This document shows positions 696-50,860 of a DNA stretch of 64,000 nt, in pieces (the stretch's first letter is position 1; every line of letters starts with the position of its first letter). The stretch comes from an uncultured Rickettsiales bacterium (lineage in GTDB: Bacteria; Pseudomonadota; Alphaproteobacteria; Rickettsiales; UBA8987): the NCBI GenBank assembly GCA_964445765.1, contig CAYULD010000002.1:139505-203504 (forward strand), written 5' to 3'. The notes under the pieces were generated by a model, which was given only the letters and a program-made list of their open reading frames with translations, was not told where the DNA came from and searched no databases. The position numbers and the translations under genes were made by a program.

Positions 696-781
696 TGTCA
701 TCCTGACCCCTAGAGCGAAGTGAAGGGGAAGGATCTTTAGATGTTTCGCTAACTAGATGTTTCGCTTCGCTCAACATGACA
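696..781. repeat. palindromic repeat family A copy (RPE/MITE-like, inverted TGTCATCCTGA...TCAACATGACA termini)
   Basis: Left arm is tgtcatcctgacccctagagcgaagtgaaggggaaggatct. Right arm agatgtttcgcttcgctcaacatgaca is identical to the right arm at 29780-29806. Contains an internal duplication of agatgtttcgct. Lies just 3' of lolA. Confidence 0.7.
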
Positions 782-5085: not shown

Positions 5086-5164
5086 TGTCATCTTGAGCGA
5101 AGCGAAAGATCTAATTTACTAAAAAATTAACTTATTAGATTCTTCGCTTACTCTCAGAATGACT
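5086..5164. repeat. palindromic repeat family A copy
   Basis: tgtcatcttgagcgaagcgaaagatct ... agattcttcgcttactctcagaatgact. These are inverted arms around an AT-rich loop. Confidence 0.65.
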
Positions 5165-10635: not shown

Positions 10636-10712
10636 ATTTAATGTATATAATAATATCGTAAATTTATTTATTCTTTGAAATAATTTATATATCAGAGTAA
10701 ATAATTAATTTT

Positions 10713-10748
10713 GCCCTCACCCTAACCCTCACCCGAAGGAAGAGGGAA
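10713..10748. repeat. GC-rich hairpin repeat family B copy
   Basis: gccctcaccctaaccctcacccgaaggaagagggaa is about 80 percent identical to the copy inside valS (57075-57110). It lies in the murE-murF spacer, 3' of murE. Confidence 0.65.
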
Positions 10749-10792
10749 TAATAAAGTTAAAATTCTAATCCCAAACACCTAATACCTAATCC

Positions 10793-12256: not shown

Positions 12257-12310
12257 TTATTAGACTTATTATAGCTATATATTATTTCTAAAAAATTATT
12301 CTTAAAATTT

Positions 12311-12351
12311 ACCCTCACCCCTGCCCTCTCACTACAATTAGATAGAGGGGG
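12311..12351. repeat. GC-rich hairpin repeat family B copy
   Basis: accctcacccctgccctctc-actacaattagata-gaggggg, immediately 3' of the pth stop. Confidence 0.6.
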
Positions 12352-19946: not shown

Positions 19947-20315
19947 TTATACAAATAAATCAACTAAACTTGAATTACTTGATGCAAAGGGAGTTTTGGC
20001 AAGCAAACTAAGTGCGGGATCAGCATCTGAAAATGAATCTTGACCATTAAGAAGAGTTTTTATTGCCTCAACACTTGCGAGTAATTTTTCAGATTCTTTA
20101 CCGCTAATATTTTCTTTTATATAATTTCTTAAATTGTCTAATGTTTCGTTTTGCCTTGATTGAGCAGGGCTTATGGCCTCAGATTTTATAAATGAATTGG
20201 AAATGGCACTATAAATTGATTGCGAGCCAGTTATCGCATCATAAACGCTTGCTTTGCTGGCACTAGAAACACCACCTCCTAGCAAAAGCGCTGTTTGACT
20301 TGAATTAATATTCAT
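19947..20315 (-). CDS. hypothetical protein (Ser/Ala-rich, no recognised family)
   Basis: 122-aa ORF in its own intergenic slot with no competing ORF. Its composition is consistent with neighbouring genes. Confidence 0.4.
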   Translation of the reverse strand: MNINSSQTALLLGGGVSSASKASVYDAITGSQSIYSAISNSFIKSEAISPAQSRQNETLDNLRNYIKENISGKESEKLLASVEAIKTLLNGQDSFSDADPALSLLAKTPFASSNSSLVDLFV

Positions 20316-20442
20316 AAGTTATTCATTTACACAAGGTTAATCTAGCATAAATTTTGCAATTTTTATAGCAAAAACCTATAATACTTGAAGTTTTCTAAAA
20401 AATTGTTACTAAAGCATCATAGAAATCTAAAATTTTAGTTAA

Positions 20443-20862
20443 ATGCAAGCCTTATTAGTATTACAAATTTTAACCGTTATTGGCTTAGTTGCAGTTATAT
20501 TAGTTCAAAAAACTAGCTCTGATGGTTTTACTGGTGCTTCTTCACCTTCTGCTTTTTTAACAGGCAGGGCTCAAGCTAATTTATTTACAAGAATTACTGC
20601 AATTTTAGCGACAATTTTCATCATAAACAGCCTAGTTTTGGCTTATATTGCATCTCACGAAGAAAGAGGGGTTAGCATCATTGAAAAACTTAAAAATAAA
20701 GAGAAAAAATCTGCTAATAATACTAAAAATGAAGATGAAATAAAAATTTTGGAAAATTTGCAGAAAGAAGAAAAAGTAAAAACTAAAAAAGGTAAGAAAA
20801 ATCCTGAGATTAAAAATGATGGAGAGTTAGAAGAAAATTCTCTAGTGCCTATTTCTGAATAA
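20443..20862 (+). CDS. secG: preprotein translocase subunit SecG with a Lys/Glu-rich C-terminal tail
   Basis: Two TM helices with a SecG-type loop (LVQKTSSDGFTGASSPSAFLTGRAQANLFTRIT). The extra ~65-aa K/E-rich tail makes it 139 aa. Confidence 0.8.
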   Translation: MQALLVLQILTVIGLVAVILVQKTSSDGFTGASSPSAFLTGRAQANLFTRITAILATIFIINSLVLAYIASHEERGVSIIEKLKNKEKKSANNTKNEDEIKILENLQKEEKVKTKKGKKNPEIKNDGELEENSLVPISE

Positions 20863-20871
20863 AATTTTTGA

Positions 20872-22092
20872 ATGAATATTTTATTAATTATCACCGGTAG
20901 CATTGCCGCTATAAAAACTCCAGAATTAGTTCGGGAGCTTAAAAAGCAAAGTCATAATGTAAATTGCGTTCTTACAAAATCTGCGGAATATTTTGTTACC
21001 AAAACTTCTCTTGCTTACCTTTCTGAAAATAAAGTTCATCAGGAGATGTTTGAGGCAAATTCCAGCATAAATTTTGATGATGGCGAAGTTTTAGAGATGG
21101 CTCATATAACATTATCCCGTAAAAATGATTTAATATTAGTAGCCCCCGCCACCGCAGATTTTATCGCAAAATTGGCTAATGGCTTTTGTGATGATTTAGC
21201 TTCAACGATTTGCGCTGCTTCAGATAAAAAAATATTCCTAGCACCTGCAATGAATAGTAAAATGCTTGAATATCCAGCAACACAGGAAAATTTAGCAAAA
21301 CTAAAAAAATGGGGCTTTGAGATTATTGAGCCAATTTCAGGAAAACTCGCTTGCGGTGAAGAGGGCAATGGCAAAATGGCAGAAATTTCTGAAATTATTA
21401 ACAAAATAGCCGCTCAAAAAAAAACTTCAAAAAAATCTAAATTAGTAGGAAAGAAAATTCTAGTTACCGCAGGGGCAACCATTGAAGAGATTGATCCAGT
21501 TCGCTTTATATCAAATTACTCATCTGGCAAACAAGGCTATTTAATTGCTGAAGAGCTTGCAAATGAAGGGGCTTTGGTAACTTTAATTTCAGGCGAGGCA
21601 AAAATTTTGCCACCAAAAAATGTTAATTTCATCAAAGTAAAATCAGCAGAAGAAATGCTAGAAGCCTGCAAAAATTCTCTGCCTTGCGATATTGCTATCT
21701 TCGCAGCAGCAGTAGCAGATTGGCAAATAGCTAGTAAAAACTCACATAAAATAAAAAAAGATAAGCAGAATAATCTTACGCTCAATTTTACCAAAACTCC
21801 AGATATATTAAAAGAAATTGCCCATCTTAAAAAAGCTAGACCTAAAATTGTTATTGGCTTTTGTGCTGAATCTCAAAATTTAGAAAAAAACGCCCTTGAA
21901 AAACTCAAAAATAAAAATTGTGATATTATCATTGCTAATAGCGTAATGCAGGATGATAGAAAAGTTTTTGGCTCAGATTTCAATTCAGTTTTAATTTTAG
22001 ATAAAACTGGTAAAAAGCAAGAAATAAAAAACAAAACTAAAAAACAAATCGCGGAAAAAATCTCTGAGATAATAGAAAAAATCAGTGATTAA
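20872..22092 (+). CDS. coaBC: bifunctional phosphopantothenoylcysteine decarboxylase / phosphopantothenate--cysteine ligase
   Basis: 406-aa ORF with a flavoprotein N-domain (ILLIITGSIAAIKTPELVREL, PAMNSKM) and a DFP C-domain (ILVTAGATIEEIDPVRFISNYSSGKQG, AAAVADW). Confidence 0.92.
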   Translation: MNILLIITGSIAAIKTPELVRELKKQSHNVNCVLTKSAEYFVTKTSLAYLSENKVHQEMFEANSSINFDDGEVLEMAHITLSRKNDLILVAPATADFIAKLANGFCDDLASTICAASDKKIFLAPAMNSKMLEYPATQENLAKLKKWGFEIIEPISGKLACGEEGNGKMAEISEIINKIAAQKKTSKKSKLVGKKILVTAGATIEEIDPVRFISNYSSGKQGYLIAEELANEGALVTLISGEAKILPPKNVNFIKVKSAEEMLEACKNSLPCDIAIFAAAVADWQIASKNSHKIKKDKQNNLTLNFTKTPDILKEIAHLKKARPKIVIGFCAESQNLEKNALEKLKNKNCDIIIANSVMQDDRKVFGSDFNSVLILDKTGKKQEIKNKTKKQIAEKISEIIEKISD

Positions 22093-23665
22093 ACCTAATA
22101 ATCTTATACATAAATGAATCGCAGAGAGCGTTGAAGCTGGCATCTAAAATATTGCCTGATACGCCAATGGTGTTCCATCTATTGCCGTTAGAATCTTTGC
22201 TTTCAATCTGCACCCTAGTTATTGCTTCAGTGCCAAGTTCATTTTTCATTATTCGCACTTTATAATCTGTTAAAAATACATCTTTAACAACTGGATATTT
22301 TTTACGCAGTGCTTTACGAATTGCTTTATAAAGGGCATCTACTGGGCCTTTTGCCTCAGCTATTTCATTGTAAATTTTACCTTGAATACTTAATTTTATG
22401 GTGGCTTCAACATAGTTTTCAAATTCATTTTTAGAATTTGTTTTGCGTTCATCTATAATTCTGAAAGATTTTACCGAAAAATATTCAGGAATATCTTGCG
22501 TTATTTGATGGGCTAGAACTTCAAAACTTGCATCGGCAAAATCATAAGAAAAACCAATGGCTTCGCGTTTTTTAACTTCATTAAATAATTGCTCAATTTT
22601 TTCTTTATCCGCTGGAATTTTAAGATCTTTCAAGCGAGCAGAAATATTGCTTCTGCCTGCTTGATCAGAAATTACAATTATTCTTTTATTGCCGATTTTT
22701 TCAGGCTGAATATGCTCATAAGCGTTAGTATTTTTATTAACCGCAGAAGCATGAATGCCCCCTTTATGAGCAAAGGCGGAATCCCCAACATAAGCGGCGT
22801 GCTTATAGTGAGGTTGGTTTAACCGCTCTTCTAAATTATCAGAAATTTTTTTGAGCTTTTTAAGTTGTGCATCACTAATTGAAATATCCAAACCCATTTT
22901 ATATTTTAAGGTGGGGATTATTGAAATTAAATTAGCATTTCCACATCTTTCACCATAGCCATTTATTGTGCCTTGCACCTGCCTTGCACCTGCACGAACT
23001 GCTTCTAGAGAATTTGCCACCGCGTTTTCAGTATCATTATGGCAGTGAATACCAATATAAGCTCCAGAAATTTCAGAGGTGATTTTTTTGGTGATGTCAT
23101 AAACTTCAAACGGCAATGTGCCACCATTTGTATCACATAAAATAACCCATCTTGCCCCTGCATCATATGCAGATTTTATAACTTTTAAGGCGTATTTTGG
23201 ATTGTTTTTATAGCCATCAAAAAAATGCTCAGCATCAAAAAAAACTTGCTTACCCTTACTTTTTAAGTGTGAAATAGTTTCAGTAACAATTTCAATATTT
23301 TCTTCTAAGGAAATATTAAGAGCTTCCTTTACATGAAAATCCCAAGATTTGCCAACGATACAAATATTTTTTGCTTTACACTTAACCAAATTATTTATGC
23401 CTGCATCTTTCTCAATAGCAATACCTGCCCTTTTTGTCATACCGAAGGCTACGAGTTCAGAATTTTTGAGATTAGGAATATTATTGAAATATGCATCATC
23501 AGTTTTGTTAGAGCCAACAAAGCCAGCCTCAATATAATCAACACCTAGATTATCAATCTCTTGAGTTAGTTCAAATTTATCATTGAGGGAAAAATTTATG
23601 CCTTGCGTTTGTGCGCCGTCCCTCATCAATGTATCATAGAGGTAAATTTTATTTTTATTTTCCAT
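22082..23665 (-). CDS. cimA: citramalate synthase / 2-isopropylmalate synthase family (CimA-type, with LeuA-dimer regulatory domain)
   Basis: 527-aa ORF with LYDTLMRDGAQTQG, IGIHCHNDTENAVANSL and a C-terminal regulatory domain. The DRE-TIM metallolyase motifs are intact. Confidence 0.8.
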   Translation of the reverse strand: MENKNKIYLYDTLMRDGAQTQGINFSLNDKFELTQEIDNLGVDYIEAGFVGSNKTDDAYFNNIPNLKNSELVAFGMTKRAGIAIEKDAGINNLVKCKAKNICIVGKSWDFHVKEALNISLEENIEIVTETISHLKSKGKQVFFDAEHFFDGYKNNPKYALKVIKSAYDAGARWVILCDTNGGTLPFEVYDITKKITSEISGAYIGIHCHNDTENAVANSLEAVRAGARQVQGTINGYGERCGNANLISIIPTLKYKMGLDISISDAQLKKLKKISDNLEERLNQPHYKHAAYVGDSAFAHKGGIHASAVNKNTNAYEHIQPEKIGNKRIIVISDQAGRSNISARLKDLKIPADKEKIEQLFNEVKKREAIGFSYDFADASFEVLAHQITQDIPEYFSVKSFRIIDERKTNSKNEFENYVEATIKLSIQGKIYNEIAEAKGPVDALYKAIRKALRKKYPVVKDVFLTDYKVRIMKNELGTEAITRVQIESKDSNGNRWNTIGVSGNILDASFNALCDSFMYKIIRFNH

Positions 23666-23807
23666 TAATTTGTAAGATGCAATAATTTGTTGGTTTATAT
23701 AAGAAAAATCAATATTTTACAAGTTTGAAAATTAACATATATCCTTACAAAACTTTTGACAAAACTTCTAAATAAGTTTTTATAAGAAAAAAGTTAATAT
23801 TATTTAT

Positions 23808-24365
23808 ATGAAATTACAAAAAATCATTCTTTTAACCTTATGTTTTATTTTAGTTTCTTGTTCTTCTGAGGAAGAAAGGAAAATGGATAAAGTGGGCAGA
23901 AAATCTAATGATTTAGATGTTAAATATCCTATGGCTAACCAAGAGCTTAGAAGAGCAAAAAGGGGTAGGATTTTGCTTGGTGGTGGCAGTATTTTTGGCG
24001 GTGGTGTGTATGATGAGGAAAACAATGCGAACCCAAATGTTAAGGGTGGCGTTAATAAATATCTATGGCAGGCGAGCCTTGAGGTTTTATCTTTTATGCC
24101 CCTTACTTCCGCTGATGCAATTGGTGGCGTTATAATTACAGATTGGTATGAAGATAGCGATAACAAAAATGAGAGAATTAAAGCAAATGTTCTTATTAAC
24201 TCAACTGAGTTAAGGGCTAGTGGCGTTAGTGTTTCATTATTTAGGCAAGTTTACTCTGGCGGAAGATGGGTTAATGCTAAATCTTCTAAAGAGGCTGAAA
24301 CACAACTTGAAGATAAAATTTTAAGCAGAGCGCGTGAAATTCGCCTTCAGGGTGATACAATTTAA
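23808..24365 (+). CDS. DUF3576-family lipoprotein
   Basis: Has a lipobox ([10 protein letters not shown]) and [30 protein letters not shown]...[12 protein letters not shown]. It sits upstream of leuS, which is typical for this family in alphaproteobacteria. Confidence 0.65.
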
Positions 24366-24391
24366 TTGTAATTAATTATATTTCTTCAACC

Positions 24392-24418
24392 AGATTTCTC
24401 GCTACGCTAGAAATTACA
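24392..24418. repeat. solo half-site of repeat family A
   Basis: agatttctcgctacgctagaaattaca is the reverse complement of a TGTAATTTCTAGCGTAGCGAGAAATCT-type arm (compare 50550-50577). No partner arm is nearby. Confidence 0.5.
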
Positions 24419-24436
24419 CTAATTTTACTATCAAAC

Positions 24437-27016
24437 ATGCAGGAATATAACCATACTGAAATTGAGTTAAAATGGCAAAAACTCTGGGAAGAAAACAATG
24501 TTTTCAAAATAGATATTAACGATAATACTAAGCCTAAATTTTACTGCCTTGAGATGTTTCCTTATCCATCTGGAAAAATCCATATGGGGCATTTACGAAA
24601 TTATACACTTGGCGATGTTGCAGCAAGGTTTAAGGCTTCTCTAGGCTATAATATTCTGCACCCTATCGGTTGGGATGCATTCGGTTTGCCCGCAGAAAAT
24701 GCTGCGATAAAAAATAAATCTCACCCTGCAAAATGGACATATGAGAACATAGATTTTATGCGTTCTCAAATCAAAACTATCGGCATTGGCTATGATTGGG
24801 ATAGAGAAATTGCAACTTGTGATCCTCAATATTTTCAGCACGAACAAAAAATGTTTTTGGATTTTCTAGCAAATGGGCTGGCTTATCAGAAAGAGGCAAC
24901 TGTCAACTGGGATCCAGTAGATCAAACCGTTTTAGCTAATGAGCAAGTAATAGATGGCAGGGGCTGGCGAAGCGGTGCTTTGGTTGAAACTAAAAAACTC
25001 AAGCAATGGTTTCTTAAAATTTCTGCCTTTAGTGAAGATTTGTTAAATGATTTAGAAATCTTAAAAGACTGGCCAGAGCGTGTTATTTCAATGCAAAGAA
25101 ATTGGATAGGCAAATCCGAGGGGGCTGCAATAAAATTTAAAATCCAAAACCCCCAGTCCCTAATTCCCAAACCCTACATAGAAGTATTCACCACTCGTCC
25201 AGAAACTATTTTTGGGGCAAGTTTTATTGGCATTTCTTGTGATCACCCACTAGCATTAAAACTTGCGGAAAATAACAATGAAATTGCAAAATTTGCTGAA
25301 GAATGCAGAAAGGTTGCAGTTACCGCAGAAGCGTTAGATAAAGCAGAAAAACTTGGTTTAGACACAGGGCTTAAAGTTCATCACCCATTTTTAGAGGGTG
25401 AATATTTACCAATTTATATCGCAAATTTTGTTTTAATGGGTTATGGCACAGGGGCAATTTTCGCTTGCCCTGCTCACGATCAAAGGGATTTTGATTTTGC
25501 TAAAAAATATAATTTGCCTATTGTGCAGGTTGTGAAGCCACAATCCCAAAATCTCCCCCTTATTGAAGCCTATACAGGTGATGGGGTGATGGTGAACTCA
25601 GAATTTCTAAATGGTTTGAGTGTTGCTGATGCAAAACAAAAAATTCTAAAAACTTTAGAAGAAAAACAAATTGGTAATAGCAAGATCACTTATCGCTTAC
25701 GTGATTGGGGGGTTTCTCGCCAGAGATATTGGGGTTGTCCAATCCCAATAATTTATTGTGATGATTGTGGTGCGGTGCCGGTTCCAGAAGATAAACTGCC
25801 AGTTACTCTGCCGGAAGATGTAGATTTTTCAAAAGAAATTAAAGGTAACCCTCTTGCTTCTCACCCCACTTGGAAGCACACAGATTGCCCAAAATGCGGT
25901 AAGCCAGCAACTCGTGAAACTGATACATTTGATACATTTTTTGAATCTTCTTGGTATTTCTTCCGTTATTTAGATCCGCAGAATAAAAGGGCATTTGATA
26001 AAGAGGTTGCAAATAAATGGCTACCGGTTGATCAATATATCGGTGGTATTGAACACGCTGTTCTGCACTTGTTATATGCAAGGTTTTTCACTAAAGCATT
26101 AAGAAAATGTGGCTATCACGATGTTGCAGAGCCTTTCAAAGCGTTGCTAACACAAGGTATGGTTTGCCACGAAACTTACCAAGATTCTAAAGGAAATTGG
26201 CTCTATCCAGAAGAAGTTGAGAGAATTTCAGAAGGTAAATATAAAATTATTAAAACTGGCGAAGAAATTAAATCTGGTGCTTCTATTAAGATGAGCAAAT
26301 CAAAGCATAATACTGTTGATCCATCTTTTATAATTGAGAAATATGGTGCAGATACCGCACGCCTTTTTATGCTTTCAGATTCCCCACCTGAAAGAGATTT
26401 AGAGTGGAGTTCAACCGGGGTTGAAGGTGCTTATAAATATCTAAAACGCCTCTGGAAACTTGCCTTTTCTGCTGAATATAGTGAGGGGGCAGATGGCAAA
26501 CATTGGTTGCTTGGTGTTGCAGGAGATTTGATAAAAGTTAGAAAATTAACCCACAAAACAATTCATCTTGTTACACAAGATTTAGAAAATTTTCACCTCA
26601 ACAAAGCCGTTGCAAGAATTAGGGAGCTTACAAATGAGCTTGAAAAAATGCCAAAGGGGCAACACGCCGCAAAGGCTGTTTTTAGAGAAGGTTTAGAGGT
26701 TGCAATTAAATTATTTAACCCTCTAATTCCACATATTACTGGGGAAATTTGGCAGAAATTAGGTAACCCTGAGCCTTTATATAAAACAAATTGGCCAAAG
26801 GCAGATACTTCACTTTTAGAAGAAGATGAAGTTATAATTGTTGTGCAAGTAAATGGCAAATTAAGAGCAAATATAAAAATCAGTAAAGATGCCGATCAAA
26901 AATCTATTGAAAAACTTGCTTTTGAAAACAACTCTGTGCAAGCTCAAACAAATGGAAAACAAATTAAGAAAATAATTTATGTTCCAAATAAAATCCTTAA
27001 TATAGTTGTTGTGTAG
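24437..27016 (+). CDS. leuS: leucine--tRNA ligase
   Basis: 859-aa ORF with a HIGH region ([15 protein letters not shown]), KMSKS (IKMSKSKHN) and a TTRPETIFG editing-domain junction. Confidence 0.96.
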
Positions 27017-27043
27017 TTTTAATTAGAATTATGGGCAAATGAA

Positions 27044-27426
27044 ATGCAAGAATTGGCAGAAACAAATTTAGATCTACCTATAAAATCAATCAGAAAGCAA
27101 GATTCTGCAAAACAAGATTATTATTACAAAGATGAAAATTTTTATTTGTATAATGATGATTGTTTAGAAGTTATGAAAAAACTTCCTGATAATTATGTTG
27201 ATATGATCTTTGCGGATCCACCTTATATGCTTTCTAATAATGGTTTTACTTGCCAAGCTGGTAAAATGGTCAGTGTAAATAAAGGTAGGTTTTGATGCAT
27301 TAACTGGCAAAGACGGTAAATGGATACAAGCAAGAACTAAAGGTTCTGGACACGGATCAAAAACTAGGGCATTTTATGCTAAGAAAAATTTAATTAAAAA
27401 AATATTTGAGTTTAAAAATTCTTGAA
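27044..27426 (+). pseudogene. remnant of a beta-class N6-adenine/N4-cytosine DNA methyltransferase (N-terminal fragment plus out-of-frame tail)
   Basis: The 83-aa ORF carries LYNDDCLEVMKKLPDNYVDMIFADPPYML...GKMVSVNKG (motif IV DPPY) and then stops. The SAM-binding motif I region is absent. A second frame runs on from about 27286 to 27426 (FDALTGKDGKWIQARTKGSGHG...). Confidence 0.65.
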
Positions 27427-27431
27427 TAAAA

Positions 27432-27938
27432 ATGAAAAAGTTTTTTACATTCCTTCTTGTTATAAGCCTTGCATCTTGTGGGTTTGAGCCGCTTTATGCT
27501 AATAAAAATAAATCAAAAAATGGCAGCGGCAAATGCTCTAATTTTAAGGTGGGTGATCCTAAAATTAGTTTGCCGGGAAAAAGAATGCAATATCTTATTC
27601 AAGATAAGCTAAACCAAGCCTGTATGAATAGTGATAAAAATTATTTGGTTGATATAAACTCCACCCTTTCAGAAGAGGCTATCTCTATTCAGATTGATAG
27701 ACAAGTTACAAGATTTAATGTTATTTTAGATAGTGATTATACCCTCAGAGATTTAGATGAAAATAAAACATTATTAACTGGCAAAACTAAATCTGTAGGT
27801 GGTTATGATGCAGTTTTATCTGAATATGGCAGATATGCCTTAAGGCAAGATGCAAAAAATAAATTAGCTGAAGAAATGGCTCAAGATATATCATTTAAGA
27901 TATTATATTATCTCAAAAATAAGAATAAAAAATCTTAA
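27432..27938 (+). CDS. lptE: LPS-assembly lipoprotein LptE
   Basis: Has a lipobox (LVISLASCGFEPLYA). The size (168 aa) and position downstream of leuS are characteristic of lptE/rlpB. Confidence 0.7.
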   Translation: MKKFFTFLLVISLASCGFEPLYANKNKSKNGSGKCSNFKVGDPKISLPGKRMQYLIQDKLNQACMNSDKNYLVDINSTLSEEAISIQIDRQVTRFNVILDSDYTLRDLDENKTLLTGKTKSVGGYDAVLSEYGRYALRQDAKNKLAEEMAQDISFKILYYLKNKNKKS

Positions 27939-28297
27939 GTTTCCATTGATTTAATAAGGTTTTTAATTGCCTCTAGCTTGCTTTTATTTTTAATTCTTGA
28001 AGCTAAACCAACAATTTCATTGATAGAATTTATATCAAATTTTTCGCCTTCTTCTCTCAAAACTTTATCTTGGGCAGTTTCAGTAAAAAAGTAATTAACT
28101 GCAATGCCTAGAATATTTGAAATATCTGAAAGCCTAGAAGCACTAATGCGGTTAAAACCCTTTTCATATTTTTGTAATTGCTGATGCGTAACGCCGAGTT
28201 TTTCAGCAAGTGCTTTTCTATTTAAGCCCCTTATCATTCTGGCAGATACAATCTTTTCACCTATTAATTTATCAGTTTCATTTGTGTTTTTCACCAT
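27935..28297 (-). CDS. XRE-family helix-turn-helix transcriptional regulator
   Basis: 120-aa ORF with IGEKIVSARMIRGLNRKALAEKLGVTHQQLQKYEKGFNRISASRLSDISNILGI, a classic HTH_3 motif. Confidence 0.8.
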   Translation of the reverse strand: MVKNTNETDKLIGEKIVSARMIRGLNRKALAEKLGVTHQQLQKYEKGFNRISASRLSDISNILGIAVNYFFTETAQDKVLREEGEKFDINSINEIVGLASRIKNKSKLEAIKNLIKSMET

Positions 28298-28468
28298 AAC
28301 CCCTATCCCCCCTGAGATAATTAGTTATGATGAATATAAAGCTATTATGATGCCAAATATTTAATTACACTAACCCATTGTTTTGTAATGATAGTTAAAA
28401 TCTGAGATTAAAAAGCAATTATTATTTTTGTTCTTTTTTGAGACAGATTACAAATATTTCTGCAAATT

Positions 28469-29689
28469 TTATATATTAGAAAATTTTTGTATTATTTCAG
28501 GAAGGGTTATAGGTGTTTGCTCTCCAGTGTTAAGGTTTTTGAGTTCCAGTTTTTCATTTTCAAAGATGAATAATATATATTTAGCACCAATTTTATCAGC
28601 TTTTTGAATTTTCTTGGCGAATTTTCCTAAAAAGATAATTTCTGTTTTAATATTATTTTTTCTTAAATTTATTGAGGTTTCAAGGGCTTTATCATTGAAA
28701 TCAGAAATTATTGCGATAAGATTTTCTTCTTTATTCACAATATTTGCTGAGAGCATAAGCCTTTCAACCCCTGCGGCAAAGCCTATAGCTGGGGTGGGCT
28801 TTCCGCCCATTTGCTCAATTAAACCATCATATCTGCCACCTGCTAAAATTGTATTTTGTGATCCTAAATTTTCACTTTCTAAAATAAATTCAAAAACCGT
28901 ATGGCTGTAATAATCCAAGCCCCTAACTATTGCTGGGTTTATGTTGATTTTAGCATTAATTTTACCGCTAATTAAATTTATCAAATTATCAAAAAAGCTT
29001 TTTGAATAATCATTTAAGTAATCAGAAATTTTTGGAGCATTTGCGACAATTTTTTTGTCAGTTTCATCTTTAGAATCTAGAATTCTTAAGGGGTTTTTGG
29101 CAAGTCTTCTTTTGCTATCTTCAGATAAATCATTGAAGTATTTTTCTAGATATTCAACTAAATGAGCTTGATAATTTTTGCGAGACTCCGTATCACCTAA
29201 CGAATTTATATTGAGTGATAAATTTTCAGAAATACCTAGTTTTTCAAGTAATTGCGAGGCACAAAAAATCATTTCAGCATCAGCATTTGGCTCGGGATTG
29301 CCAAAATATTCAAAATTGACTTGGTGAAATTGGCGTTGTCTGCCTTTTTGTGGGCGTTCATATCTAAAAGCCGCACCATATGAAAATAATTTTAAGGGTG
29401 TGTGCTGTTGCAAACCATTTGAAATAAAAGCTCTTACAATTCCAGCGGTAAATTCCGGGCGAAGGGTTATATTTTCACCGCCTTTGGTATCAAAAGAATA
29501 CATTTCTTTACTAACTACATCACTTTCCTCCCCCATAGAGCGAGAGAAAACTTGGGTTTCTTCAAAAATTGGCGTGTGAATAGTTTTGAAATTAAAATTT
29601 TTAGCAGTGTTTTTTGCGATATTAATTATTGCTTCAAATTTTTCAGCATCATCAAAAATATAATCTTTTGTTCCTCTAACTGGTTGCAT
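28469..29689 (-). CDS. hisS: histidine--tRNA ligase
   Basis: 406-aa ORF with class II motifs (RPEFTAGIVRA, FRYERPQKGRQRQFHQ, GGRYDGL, GFAAGVERL) and a C-terminal anticodon-binding domain. Confidence 0.92.
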   Translation of the reverse strand: MQPVRGTKDYIFDDAEKFEAIINIAKNTAKNFNFKTIHTPIFEETQVFSRSMGEESDVVSKEMYSFDTKGGENITLRPEFTAGIVRAFISNGLQQHTPLKLFSYGAAFRYERPQKGRQRQFHQVNFEYFGNPEPNADAEMIFCASQLLEKLGISENLSLNINSLGDTESRKNYQAHLVEYLEKYFNDLSEDSKRRLAKNPLRILDSKDETDKKIVANAPKISDYLNDYSKSFFDNLINLISGKINAKININPAIVRGLDYYSHTVFEFILESENLGSQNTILAGGRYDGLIEQMGGKPTPAIGFAAGVERLMLSANIVNKEENLIAIISDFNDKALETSINLRKNNIKTEIIFLGKFAKKIQKADKIGAKYILFIFENEKLELKNLNTGEQTPITLPEIIQKFSNI

Positions 29690-29717
29690 TATATAGTAAA
29701 TTACGTTTTATATGATA

Positions 29718-29806
29718 TGTCATCCTGACCCTAAGCGAAGCTAAGGGGAAGGATCTATAGTAAAATGCATTTTACTATAAGATGTTTCGCTTCGCTCAAC
29801 ATGACA
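29718..29806. repeat. palindromic repeat family A copy carrying the 24-bp perfect palindrome tatagtaaaatgcattttactata in its loop
   Basis: tgtcatcctgaccctaagcgaagctaaggggaaggatc-[tatagtaaaatgcattttactata]-agatgtttcgcttcgctcaacatgaca, located 3' of the virB6-like gene. Confidence 0.75.
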
Positions 29807-29865
29807 GAAATCTCTCTAAAACACTATAGGTTTTTATTTTTTTCTATTACTATAGCTAAGAAAAC

Positions 29866-50549: not shown

Positions 50550-50860
50550 TGTCATTTCGAGCAAAGCGAGAAATCTAGAAAGAATATATTATCCTCATGG
50601 GCTAGTTATAAACAGAGATTGATAATTTTAACATATTAATCTTGCTCTATATTTCCTCCCCTGCTAGCGGGGGAGGATAAAGGAGGGGGTGTCAGGAAAG
50701 AGCTTAATATTCTGTTTATAAGTTCTCTCACATCACCCTCCCCTTTATCCCCTCCCGCAGGCAGGAGGGGAAATACTACAATTAATCAACGGGTTATAGT
50801 TTTGCCTTAACTAGCCCATAGGGTTTGTATAAAAAATTTCTCACTTCGTTCGCAATTACA
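50550..50860. repeat. ~311-bp composite, three-layer imperfect palindrome (family-A termini enclosing family-B-like hairpins)
   Basis: Outer arms are tgtcatttcgagcaaagcgagaaatcta (50550-50577) and aatttctcacttcgttcgcaattaca (50835-50860). Middle arms are atgggctagtta (50597-50608) and its inverse within 50807-50822. Inner inverted pair is atttcctcccctgctagcgggggaggataaaggaggggg (50651-50689) and catcaccctcccctttatcccctcccgcaggcaggagggg (50731-50770). Confidence 0.75.

Follow-up and report, generated by a model that had tools for sequence, protein, structure and literature searches.

A 27-nucleotide intergenic hairpin of an uncultured Rickettsiales bacterium probably belongs to the Ssn-related repeats

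A repeat system made up of NTS hairpins and Ssn nucleases of the GIY-YIG type was first described in 2025 (Nat Commun 2025, PMC11893778). The Neisseria protein SsnA, of 94 amino acids, binds and cleaves the 28-nt NTS hairpin, CGTCATTCCCGCGMAVGCGGGAATCYRG, solely when it is single-stranded DNA, and does not act on RNA; cutting is governed by the three nucleotides before the palindrome and binding by the C after it, and the repeat has the form CGTCAT...ATCYRG (PMC11893778). The same study described an NTS-ssnA-NTS architecture, together with homologues across bacteria that have related hairpins (SRM) on their flanks; genera rich in SRM include Rickettsia and Wolbachia, and the Rickettsia palindromic elements (RPEs) are unmentioned (PMC11893778). 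NTS contains the older dRS3 repeat, inverted copies of which surround variable RS sequences to form the NIMEs, described as Neisseria-specific (PMC1797815). Here we analyse 64,000 nucleotides of contig CAYULD010000002.1 from an uncultured Rickettsiales bacterium, a stretch called the window below. An earlier note on this DNA had recognised a family of palindromic repeats, family A, with full copies at 696–781, 5086–5164 and 29718–29806, a 311-bp composite whose termini belong to the same family (50550–50860) and a solo half-site at 24392–24418, and had read them as non-autonomous palindromic elements comparable to RPEs. All of these positions hold, and the interpretation is supported in part.

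We propose, with a probability of about 0.7, that family A forms one class among the Ssn-related hairpin repeats, related to NTS and SRM and, in Neisseria, to dRS3 and the NIMEs. The assignment is made because the repeats have the head and tail of NTS, a covarying stem, a clustering with homologues of SsnA and doublets resembling NIMEs. Our own analysis established the unit with its covariation, the range of phyla in which it occurs, the clustering with GIY-YIG genes and the homology of the encoded protein to SsnA; the cleavage of NTS by SsnA, specific for single-stranded DNA, is taken from the literature.

The true repeating entity is a 27-nt hairpin, TGTC-AT[NNN]-GA-GCGAAGC-GA-[NNN]AT-CT, and not an element of ~85 bp. 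We write this unit from 5′-TGTCAT to ATCT-3′, with (+) and (−) giving the direction of that head-to-tail reading, call a head-to-head pair (→ ←) a doublet, and refer to the 27-nt hairpin class as class A, or family A. With the 27-mer consensus and up to three mismatches, three matches were found in the window against 0.00 expected (100 shuffles), and a looser search of the whole 64 kb gave nine units at five intergenic sites where none is expected by chance, confirming that the repeat family is real. The 11-nt core GAGCGAAGCGA, allowing two mismatches, occurs 17 times against 5.3 expected, nine of these occurrences being the units. The five sites comprise three short pairs, one pair 257 bp apart and one solo unit. 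What had been described as full copies, 79–89 bp long, are → ← pairs of units around unrelated spacers of 18–24 nt.

Each hairpin consists of an oriented head, (T)GTC, a 5-bp stem AT-NNN of free sequence provided that it pairs, a tandem G·A/A·G step, a GCGNAGC mini-hairpin and a C-T tail. Five versions of the free stem are present in the window (ATCCT/AGGAT, ATGTT/AACAT, ATCTT/AAGAT, ATTCT/AGAAT and ATTTC/GAAAT), all of which pair. Covariation was examined in an alignment of 64 distinct units, five from the window and the others from metagenome loci picked for another reason. Two-sided changes were found at all seven pairs, including the inner two (G:C to A:T or C:G), and 96.7% of the paired cells were complementary, against 84% in shuffles and 14–52% when the partner column was slid. 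Furthermore, 66 double-change cells were counted where 17 were expected, and none of 500 shuffles reached the observed values. The flanks of the stem, T-GTC-AT ... AT-C-T, are kept at 90% or more in this alignment.

Of 143 units from the 120 genome loci listed in our searches, 131 have free NNN/NNN triplets that pair perfectly, with at least 12 different triplets, and outside these 143 units only one T on each side is conserved (79% before, 82% after). Conservation thus ends one base beyond each single unit, and it is therefore the 27-nt hairpin, rather than the 85-bp element, that is conserved. The most variable loop base is the N of GCGNAGC, which occurs as GCGAAGC, GCGCAGC, GCGGAGC and GCGTAGC. 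This mini-hairpin, d(GCGAAGC) or GCGNAGC, is unusually stable as DNA (review PMC13037366). The exact motif lies at the centre of the unit; the review treats it as a physical-chemical motif and not as a genomic repeat family, and its role in the units is presumed.

The hairpin is not confined to the window. A scan of one genome per species with the pattern GTCATNNNGAGCGAAGCGANNNATC returned at least 120 loci, and among the matches listed were Acidobacteriota, Nitrospirales, Planctomycetota, Bacteroidota, Chloroflexota, Patescibacteria/Gracilibacteria, Bacillota, Verrucomicrobiota, Gemmatimonadota and others; by our own arithmetic, 19 fixed bases in ~1.2e12 positions would give only a handful of matches by chance. 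Viral contigs contributed 96 further unit-bearing stretches. About one third of the genome units among the matches listed have an inverted partner 10–40 nt downstream, the opposite geometry being rare, and among these matches too the spacers of doublets are unrelated to each other and solo units are common. The earlier note had suggested a search for target-site duplications and for copies in frame within coding sequences. No direct repeat above chance was detected at offsets 0–2 in 62 distinct doublets, and none was visible at the three doublets of the window. All five window sites are intergenic, while an exact unit lies in frame within a terminase large-subunit open reading frame (ORF) on a viral contig (L191). 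An arrangement unlike the doublets elsewhere was seen in a Bacteroidaceae metagenome-assembled genome (L006, 3563–4217), where seven exact family-A units follow each other in direct orientation at a regular 105-bp spacing.

Among ORFs of at least 90 amino acids, clustering of the neighbouring genes at 216 motif loci among the matches listed revealed no recurrent protein family near the units. Genes for GIY-YIG proteins were missed by this clustering because they are small, and surfaced when shorter ORFs were included. Three single-domain GIY-YIG ORFs directly adjoin units, in a Gracilibacteria genome (L011), in an alphaproteobacterium (L012) and on a viral contig (L205), and the protein beside the units matches PF01541. 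As an independent test, 80 metagenome loci were taken solely because they encode a relative of that protein. Here 101 units lie no more than 300 bp from the gene (1.49 per kb), against seven at distances above 600 bp (0.045 per kb), a 33-fold difference in density; a correctly oriented flanking unit is present in 39 of the 80 loci, and on both sides of the gene in 19. Units upstream mostly point with the gene and those downstream against it, so that the cassette reads TGTCAT..ATCT-[gene]-AGAT..ATGACA, the same outward-headed geometry as in the window doublets. A GIY-YIG profile search of the viral contigs returned the known locus only.

The GIY-YIG protein is homologous to the SsnA counterpart of N. 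gonorrhoeae, with a tblastn E value of 9e-17 at 44.7% identity (46% and E = 2e-26 in pairwise BLASTP); homologues were recognised in the Ssn paper by a tblastn E value < 1e-10. The gonococcal ORF is 94 codons long; its Y6, Y17 and E64 line up with residues mutated in the SsnA work, and it is embedded among 11 NTS copies, with → ← doublets ~53 nt apart. The tblastn matches are two whole N. gonorrhoeae chromosomes (2.17 Mb) that PLSDB lists as plasmids, NZ_CP119142.1 and NZ_CP119140.1. At NZ_CP119142.1 1878719–1885000 the ssnA counterpart has no in-frame ATG, a nearby ATG being in another frame, and the gene may use another start codon or be disrupted in that strain.

Compared with NTS and SRM, class A has the same kind of oriented hairpin of 20–50 nt with a (C/T)GTCAT head and an ATC(Y) tail, the same flanking of a ~94-aa GIY-YIG gene on both sides with heads outward (in class-A cassettes elsewhere, not in the window), and the same intergenic scatter of solo units and → ← doublets. 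It differs in its interior, AT-NNN + GA + GCGNAGC + GA + NNN-AT in place of the GC-rich TCCCGCG...CGCGGGA stem, in being nearly invariant across many phyla and viral contigs, and in lacking a nuclease gene in the window. As in dRS3 and the NIMEs, inverted short hairpin repeats bracket unrelated spacers (RS) between genes, with conserved stem ends and a variable middle; the window units, with their 5-bp AT+NNN stems, do not fit ATTCCC-N8-GGGAAT, and they form single doublets and one nested composite, not long arrays. The dRS3 type itself occurs at the syntenic site of the nearest relative. This contig (L218), labelled as a Rickettsiales metagenome-assembled genome and with a histidyl-tRNA synthetase (HisRS) 81% identical, carries TTCATTCCCGCGAAAGCGGGAATCT between the virB6-like gene and hisS, an exact ATTCCC-N8-GGGAAT hairpin in the same intergenic position and orientation as the window copy. 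The virB6-like/hisS site seems to keep such hairpins over time while the hairpin class changes. A literature search with GAGCGAAGCGA and with peptide translations found nothing on the repeat itself, and the papers on the sister hairpins were reached through the string CATTCCCGC.

Several observations weigh against placing family A among the Ssn-related repeats. The published SRM pattern, HGTCWYN(0-2)YYVSBRHN(0-5)WNVSBRGN(0-2)RNCYNB, has no match in the window; the units starting at 696, 5086 and 29718, the right arm at 755–781 and a generic class-A unit all fail it while an NTS control passes, the mismatch lying in the stem interior and not in the head or tail. The separation of class A from SRM refers to this search pattern. 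Under standard energy parameters for DNA, single AT-rich units of the window are no more stable than shuffles (z about 0), and because folding energy does not set them apart the structural case rests on covariation. A dedicated search found no GIY-YIG nuclease gene within the 64 kb, and neither additional units nor a nuclease were found on the short Logan contigs that share proteins with the window. Class-A units are absent from about half of the 80 GIY-YIG loci, for which a different class of hairpin or contigs of insufficient length may account. Cleavage by the nuclease was demonstrated for the Neisseria NTS, and for class A we infer it. The sister repeats of Neisseria have been attributed to a RAYT transposase as well (Bertels and Rainey).

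If family A is indeed Ssn-related, the working form of the unit would be single-stranded DNA. An Ssn-family nuclease, small and with a single GIY-YIG domain, would bind the folded hairpin and nick just 5′ of it, so that class-A hairpins would be cut by their own cognate enzyme; a protein such as that encoded on L205 or L223 would be predicted to act strand-specifically on single-stranded TGTCATTCTGAGCGAAGCGAAGAATCT. Where the gene is present, it lies between two units whose heads face outward. The window doublets would then be gene-less, non-autonomous relatives of this cassette, in which a short unrelated spacer replaces the gene, comparable to the dRS3-RS-dRS3 arrangement (NIME) of Neisseria. 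Nicking of the hairpin followed by recombination or repair between unit-bearing sites could make and reshuffle doublets. Recombination or repair provoked in this way would explain why arms that are identical enclose different spacers, and also the half-unit duplication at 739–750, the nested composite and the absence of target-site duplications. Since the window contains no nuclease gene, its copies would rely on one encoded in another part of the genome or be relics. When transcribed, such intergenic palindromes may also form RNA hairpins as a side effect.

The first doublet of the window opens with a 41-nt extended variant at 696..736 (+), TGTCATCCTGA-CCCCT..AGGGG-AAGGATCT, whose loop encloses an additional inner stem; its DNA fold combines the outer stem ATCCT/AGGAT with the inner stem CCCCT/AGGGG. 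Such a loop-nested stem is found in two window units (696 and 29718), and the same extended variant is present in a further locus (L300). Within the spacer, AGATGTTTCGCT at 739..750 (−) incompletely duplicates the 3′ half of a unit, repeating 755–766; this is the internal duplication, agatgtttcgct, that had already been noticed at this copy. The right arm at 755..781 (−), TGTCATGTTGAGCGAAGCGAAACATCT, is identical in all 27 bases to that at 29780–29806, again as described before. A Logan contig of the same organism (SRR12997672, L306) ends at window position 751, within this doublet and just before the duplicated right arm, as would be expected if a multi-copy repeat had broken the assembly.

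The second doublet pairs a left arm without mismatches to the consensus, TGTCATCTTGAGCGAAGCGAAAGATCT at 5086..5112 (+), with a 28-nt right arm, AGTCATTCTGAGAGTAAGCGAAGAATCT at 5137..5164 (−), whose loop is degenerate and whose stem ATTCT/AGAAT is kept; the AT-rich loop reported for this copy is present. The solo unit, TGTAATTTCTAGCGTAGCGAGAAATCT at 24392..24418 (−), lies between a DUF3576 gene and leuS, with the stem ATTTC/GAAAT and a DNA fold at z = −2.8. In the third doublet, the locus on which the earlier note centred, the left arm is a 39-nt extended variant at 29718..29756 (+) with a fold of −7.6 kcal/mol (z = −3.2), and the right arm lies at 29780..29806 (−). The 311-bp composite begins with TGTCATTTCGAGCAAAGCGAGAAATCT at 50550..50576 (+), one mismatch from the consensus, and ends with a degenerate unit, TGTAATTGCGAACGAAGTGAGAAATTT at 50834..50860 (−), which has four mismatches, a broken outer stem, an inner pair changed from G:C to A:T and no fold. 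Its 257-bp spacer (50577..50833, no strand) is itself a nested palindrome, in which a second hairpin family, of the CCTCCCC..GGGGAGG type, is represented twice, with a DNA fold of −50.5 kcal/mol (z = −5.8). The statement that copies lie just downstream of gene ends is correct for the three doublets and does not extend to the composite, which lies between divergent gene starts (50430 and 51090). The copies are palindromic, gene-less and variable in their middles, as had been said of non-autonomous elements, with the difference that each arm is itself a complete hairpin and is conserved singly. Rather than an acquisition of cargo, the variable middles are better seen as spacers without relation to each other, set between two units that are each conserved independently, as in the Neisseria NIMEs.

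The spacer of the third doublet is a 24-bp perfect palindrome, TATAGTAAAATGCATTTTACTATA (29756..29779, no strand), as the earlier note had observed. It is not a part of family A but an independent motif, an exact second copy being present at 42121–42144, outside any family-A element. Both exact copies lie 49–67 nt upstream of the starts of minus-strand genes, hisS (29689) and a dihydrouridine synthase gene (42072), and the second overlaps the stop codon of a clpB-like gene; a weaker copy (83%) is found within a gene at 2576–2599. The motif contains TATAGT and may be an operator or promoter element. Upstream of the same doublet, 29866–34854 (−) encodes a protein of 1662 residues whose sole Pfam hit is a TrbL/VirB6 domain (residues 491–577), and which we take to be an unusually large VirB6-like protein of a kind familiar from Rickettsiales.

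At Rfam gathering thresholds the only RNA family found was tRNA, and a permissive scan of 29650–29870 yielded nothing but microRNA-like noise that stemmed from the 24-bp palindrome, so no known RNA family that applies to family A emerged from these scans. A hammerhead or other ribozyme, a CRISPR repeat, an integron attC site and parS were rejected on reading the sequence, since their defining bases are absent.

Three other explanations deserve consideration. The units could be REP sequences and the doublets REPINs, copied by a domesticated IS200-like Y1 transposase (RAYT) that is encoded once elsewhere in the genome. The three window doublets, like the → ← arrangement that dominates elsewhere, agree with the definition of a REPIN as two close inverted hairpins forming a long hairpin; class A also resembles REP, BIME and REPIN sequences in being short and extragenic, in the 5′ tetranucleotide that orients each hairpin, in the inverted doublets, in the presumed action on single-stranded DNA and in an enzyme gene with its own repeats on its flanks, and Y1 transposases likewise act on single-stranded DNA hairpins with a conserved 5′ tetranucleotide. 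In REPs, this conserved tetranucleotide is GTAG, whereas the head of our unit is TGTC(A)/GTCA. A sister Neisseria repeat, ATTCCCGCGCAGGCGGGAATC, is indeed classified as the REPIN of a Group 2 RAYT (Bertels and Rainey), but RAYT/REPIN pairs are described as passed on vertically, restricted to lineages and not carried by horizontally mobile elements (Bertels and Rainey), unlike a unit that is near-identical across phyla and in viral contigs. A dedicated search found no RAYT or Y1 gene in the window. Y1_Tnp-like ORFs of a single RAYT-like family do occur in two unit-bearing viral loci, yet these are two of the 216 motif-selected loci among the matches listed, neither ORF is flanked by units, and a search for further RAYT loci in viral contigs returned the same two. 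The clustering centres instead on GIY-YIG genes, the partner gene found being that of a GIY-YIG nuclease and not of a Y1 HUH enzyme, and we regard the REPIN explanation as unlikely. A main role at the RNA level, with the doublets as transcription terminators or stabilisers of 3′ ends under host selection, like some E. coli REPs, is more improbable still. All copies are intergenic, three doublets follow a gene end, the RNA folds of the 5086 and 29718 copies are strong (−30 to −32 kcal/mol, z = −4.3 to −6.5), and canonical terminators are not enriched in 20001–40000 (16 against 12.9 expected). Nevertheless, on neither strand is one of the three doublets followed by a T-run, the doublet at 29718–29806 is not among the terminator-like sites of the 20001–40000 scan, and one composite lies between two gene starts. 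With units at only five intergenic sites and no T-run, the possibility raised in the earlier note of a generic terminator present at most gene ends does not apply. A terminator would moreover leave the GTC head, the C tail, the loop identical across phyla and the clustering with nuclease genes unexplained, and SsnA does not act on RNA; an effect on RNA could be secondary.

The explanation closest to the earlier note, in which the ~85-bp palindrome is a lineage-specific MITE (miniature inverted-repeat transposable element) or an RPE-type mobile unit moved by a conventional transposase that recognises TGTCAT terminal inverted repeats, is largely refuted and now the least credible of the three. 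The ends, TGTCAT...ATGACA, are inverted repeats around variable middles, and exact units can stand in frame in coding sequence elsewhere, as in the viral terminase ORF, which is a likeness to RPEs. The sequence ATGAC, the reverse complement of the GTCAT head, was found to be the hallmark of RPE-4, -6 and -7 and of Wolbachia elements (Matsutani and co-workers, PMC3767692), so that the comparison with Rickettsiales-type palindromic repeats rich in ATGAC/GTCAT, made here by the reported motif, is sound in part. The window copies, on the other hand, are 79–89 bp long (with one composite of 311 bp) against 100–150 bp for RPEs, none is in coding sequence, and the class is not limited to Rickettsiales, the same hairpin being found in many phyla and on viral contigs. 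Against a MITE stand the 62 doublets without target-site duplication, spacers that are unrelated even where the arms are identical, the abundance of solo units and the conservation that stops one base outside a single unit. No transposase family recurs near the units at the 216 motif loci, the sole gene bracketed by them being that of the GIY-YIG nuclease. For the window itself, the statement that no transposase is present stands as regards Y1/RAYT enzymes, for which a targeted search found none, other transposase types not having been screened.

The second hairpin family of the window, family B, is of the type TTTGCCCTCACCC..CCCTCNCCCGAAGGNAGAGGGA and occurs at 10704–10750, 12302–12345, 57066–57110, 50647–50690 and 50732–50775; two copies are intergenic, one is within a synthetase ORF and two are within the spacer of the family-A composite. 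Similar hairpins, CCCTCTCCC...GGGAGAGGG, are widespread in bacteria. The synthetase ORF (55448–58810, −) encodes a class I tRNA synthetase of 1120 residues and of the Val/Ile type (DVMDTWATSS and KMSKS motifs) with an in-frame insertion of ~190 residues at about 56540–57110. The insertion contains a family-B hairpin at 57072–57109, translated as SLSLREREGVRA, a C-rich hairpin at 56976–57025, a DUF559/Vsr-like endonuclease domain (residues 640–744; PF04480, E = 1.4e-40) and an inverted family-B-like hairpin at 56544–56562. It looks like a hairpin-nuclease-hairpin cassette following the logic of NTS-ssnA-NTS, placed in an essential gene without a break of the frame. Only one other DUF559 ORF was found among the loci gathered.

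For the window alone the result is modest, its copies being gene-less and intergenic with no demonstrated effect. It nevertheless moves what was taken for a Rickettsia-like palindromic element into a repeat system of many bacterial phyla with a candidate enzyme. The published SRM pattern misses class A altogether, and surveys that use it would therefore score the window, and genomes rich in class A, as free of such repeats. With 27 nt, covariation at all pairs and a GCGNAGC core, class A also offers a well-defined substrate for studying how Ssn-type nucleases read hairpins, and the shared GTCAT/ATGAC head provides a testable link between these nucleases and the palindromic elements RPE-4, -6 and -7 and those of Wolbachia. 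A wider and distinctly tentative possibility is that the hairpin and GIY-YIG cassette is an autonomous mobile element, with an exceptionally wide host range from candidate-phyla bacteria to Acidobacteriota, Rickettsiales and phages, that spreads by nicking single-stranded DNA hairpins rather than by a transposase, and whose non-autonomous offspring are the gene-less doublets, including the ATGAC-rich palindromic elements of Rickettsia and Wolbachia. If this were true, the enzyme behind the RPE-type repeats, a question since 2000, would be named, and the DUF559 and hairpin cassette in frame in the tRNA synthetase gene of the window would represent a second, parallel nuclease-hairpin system.

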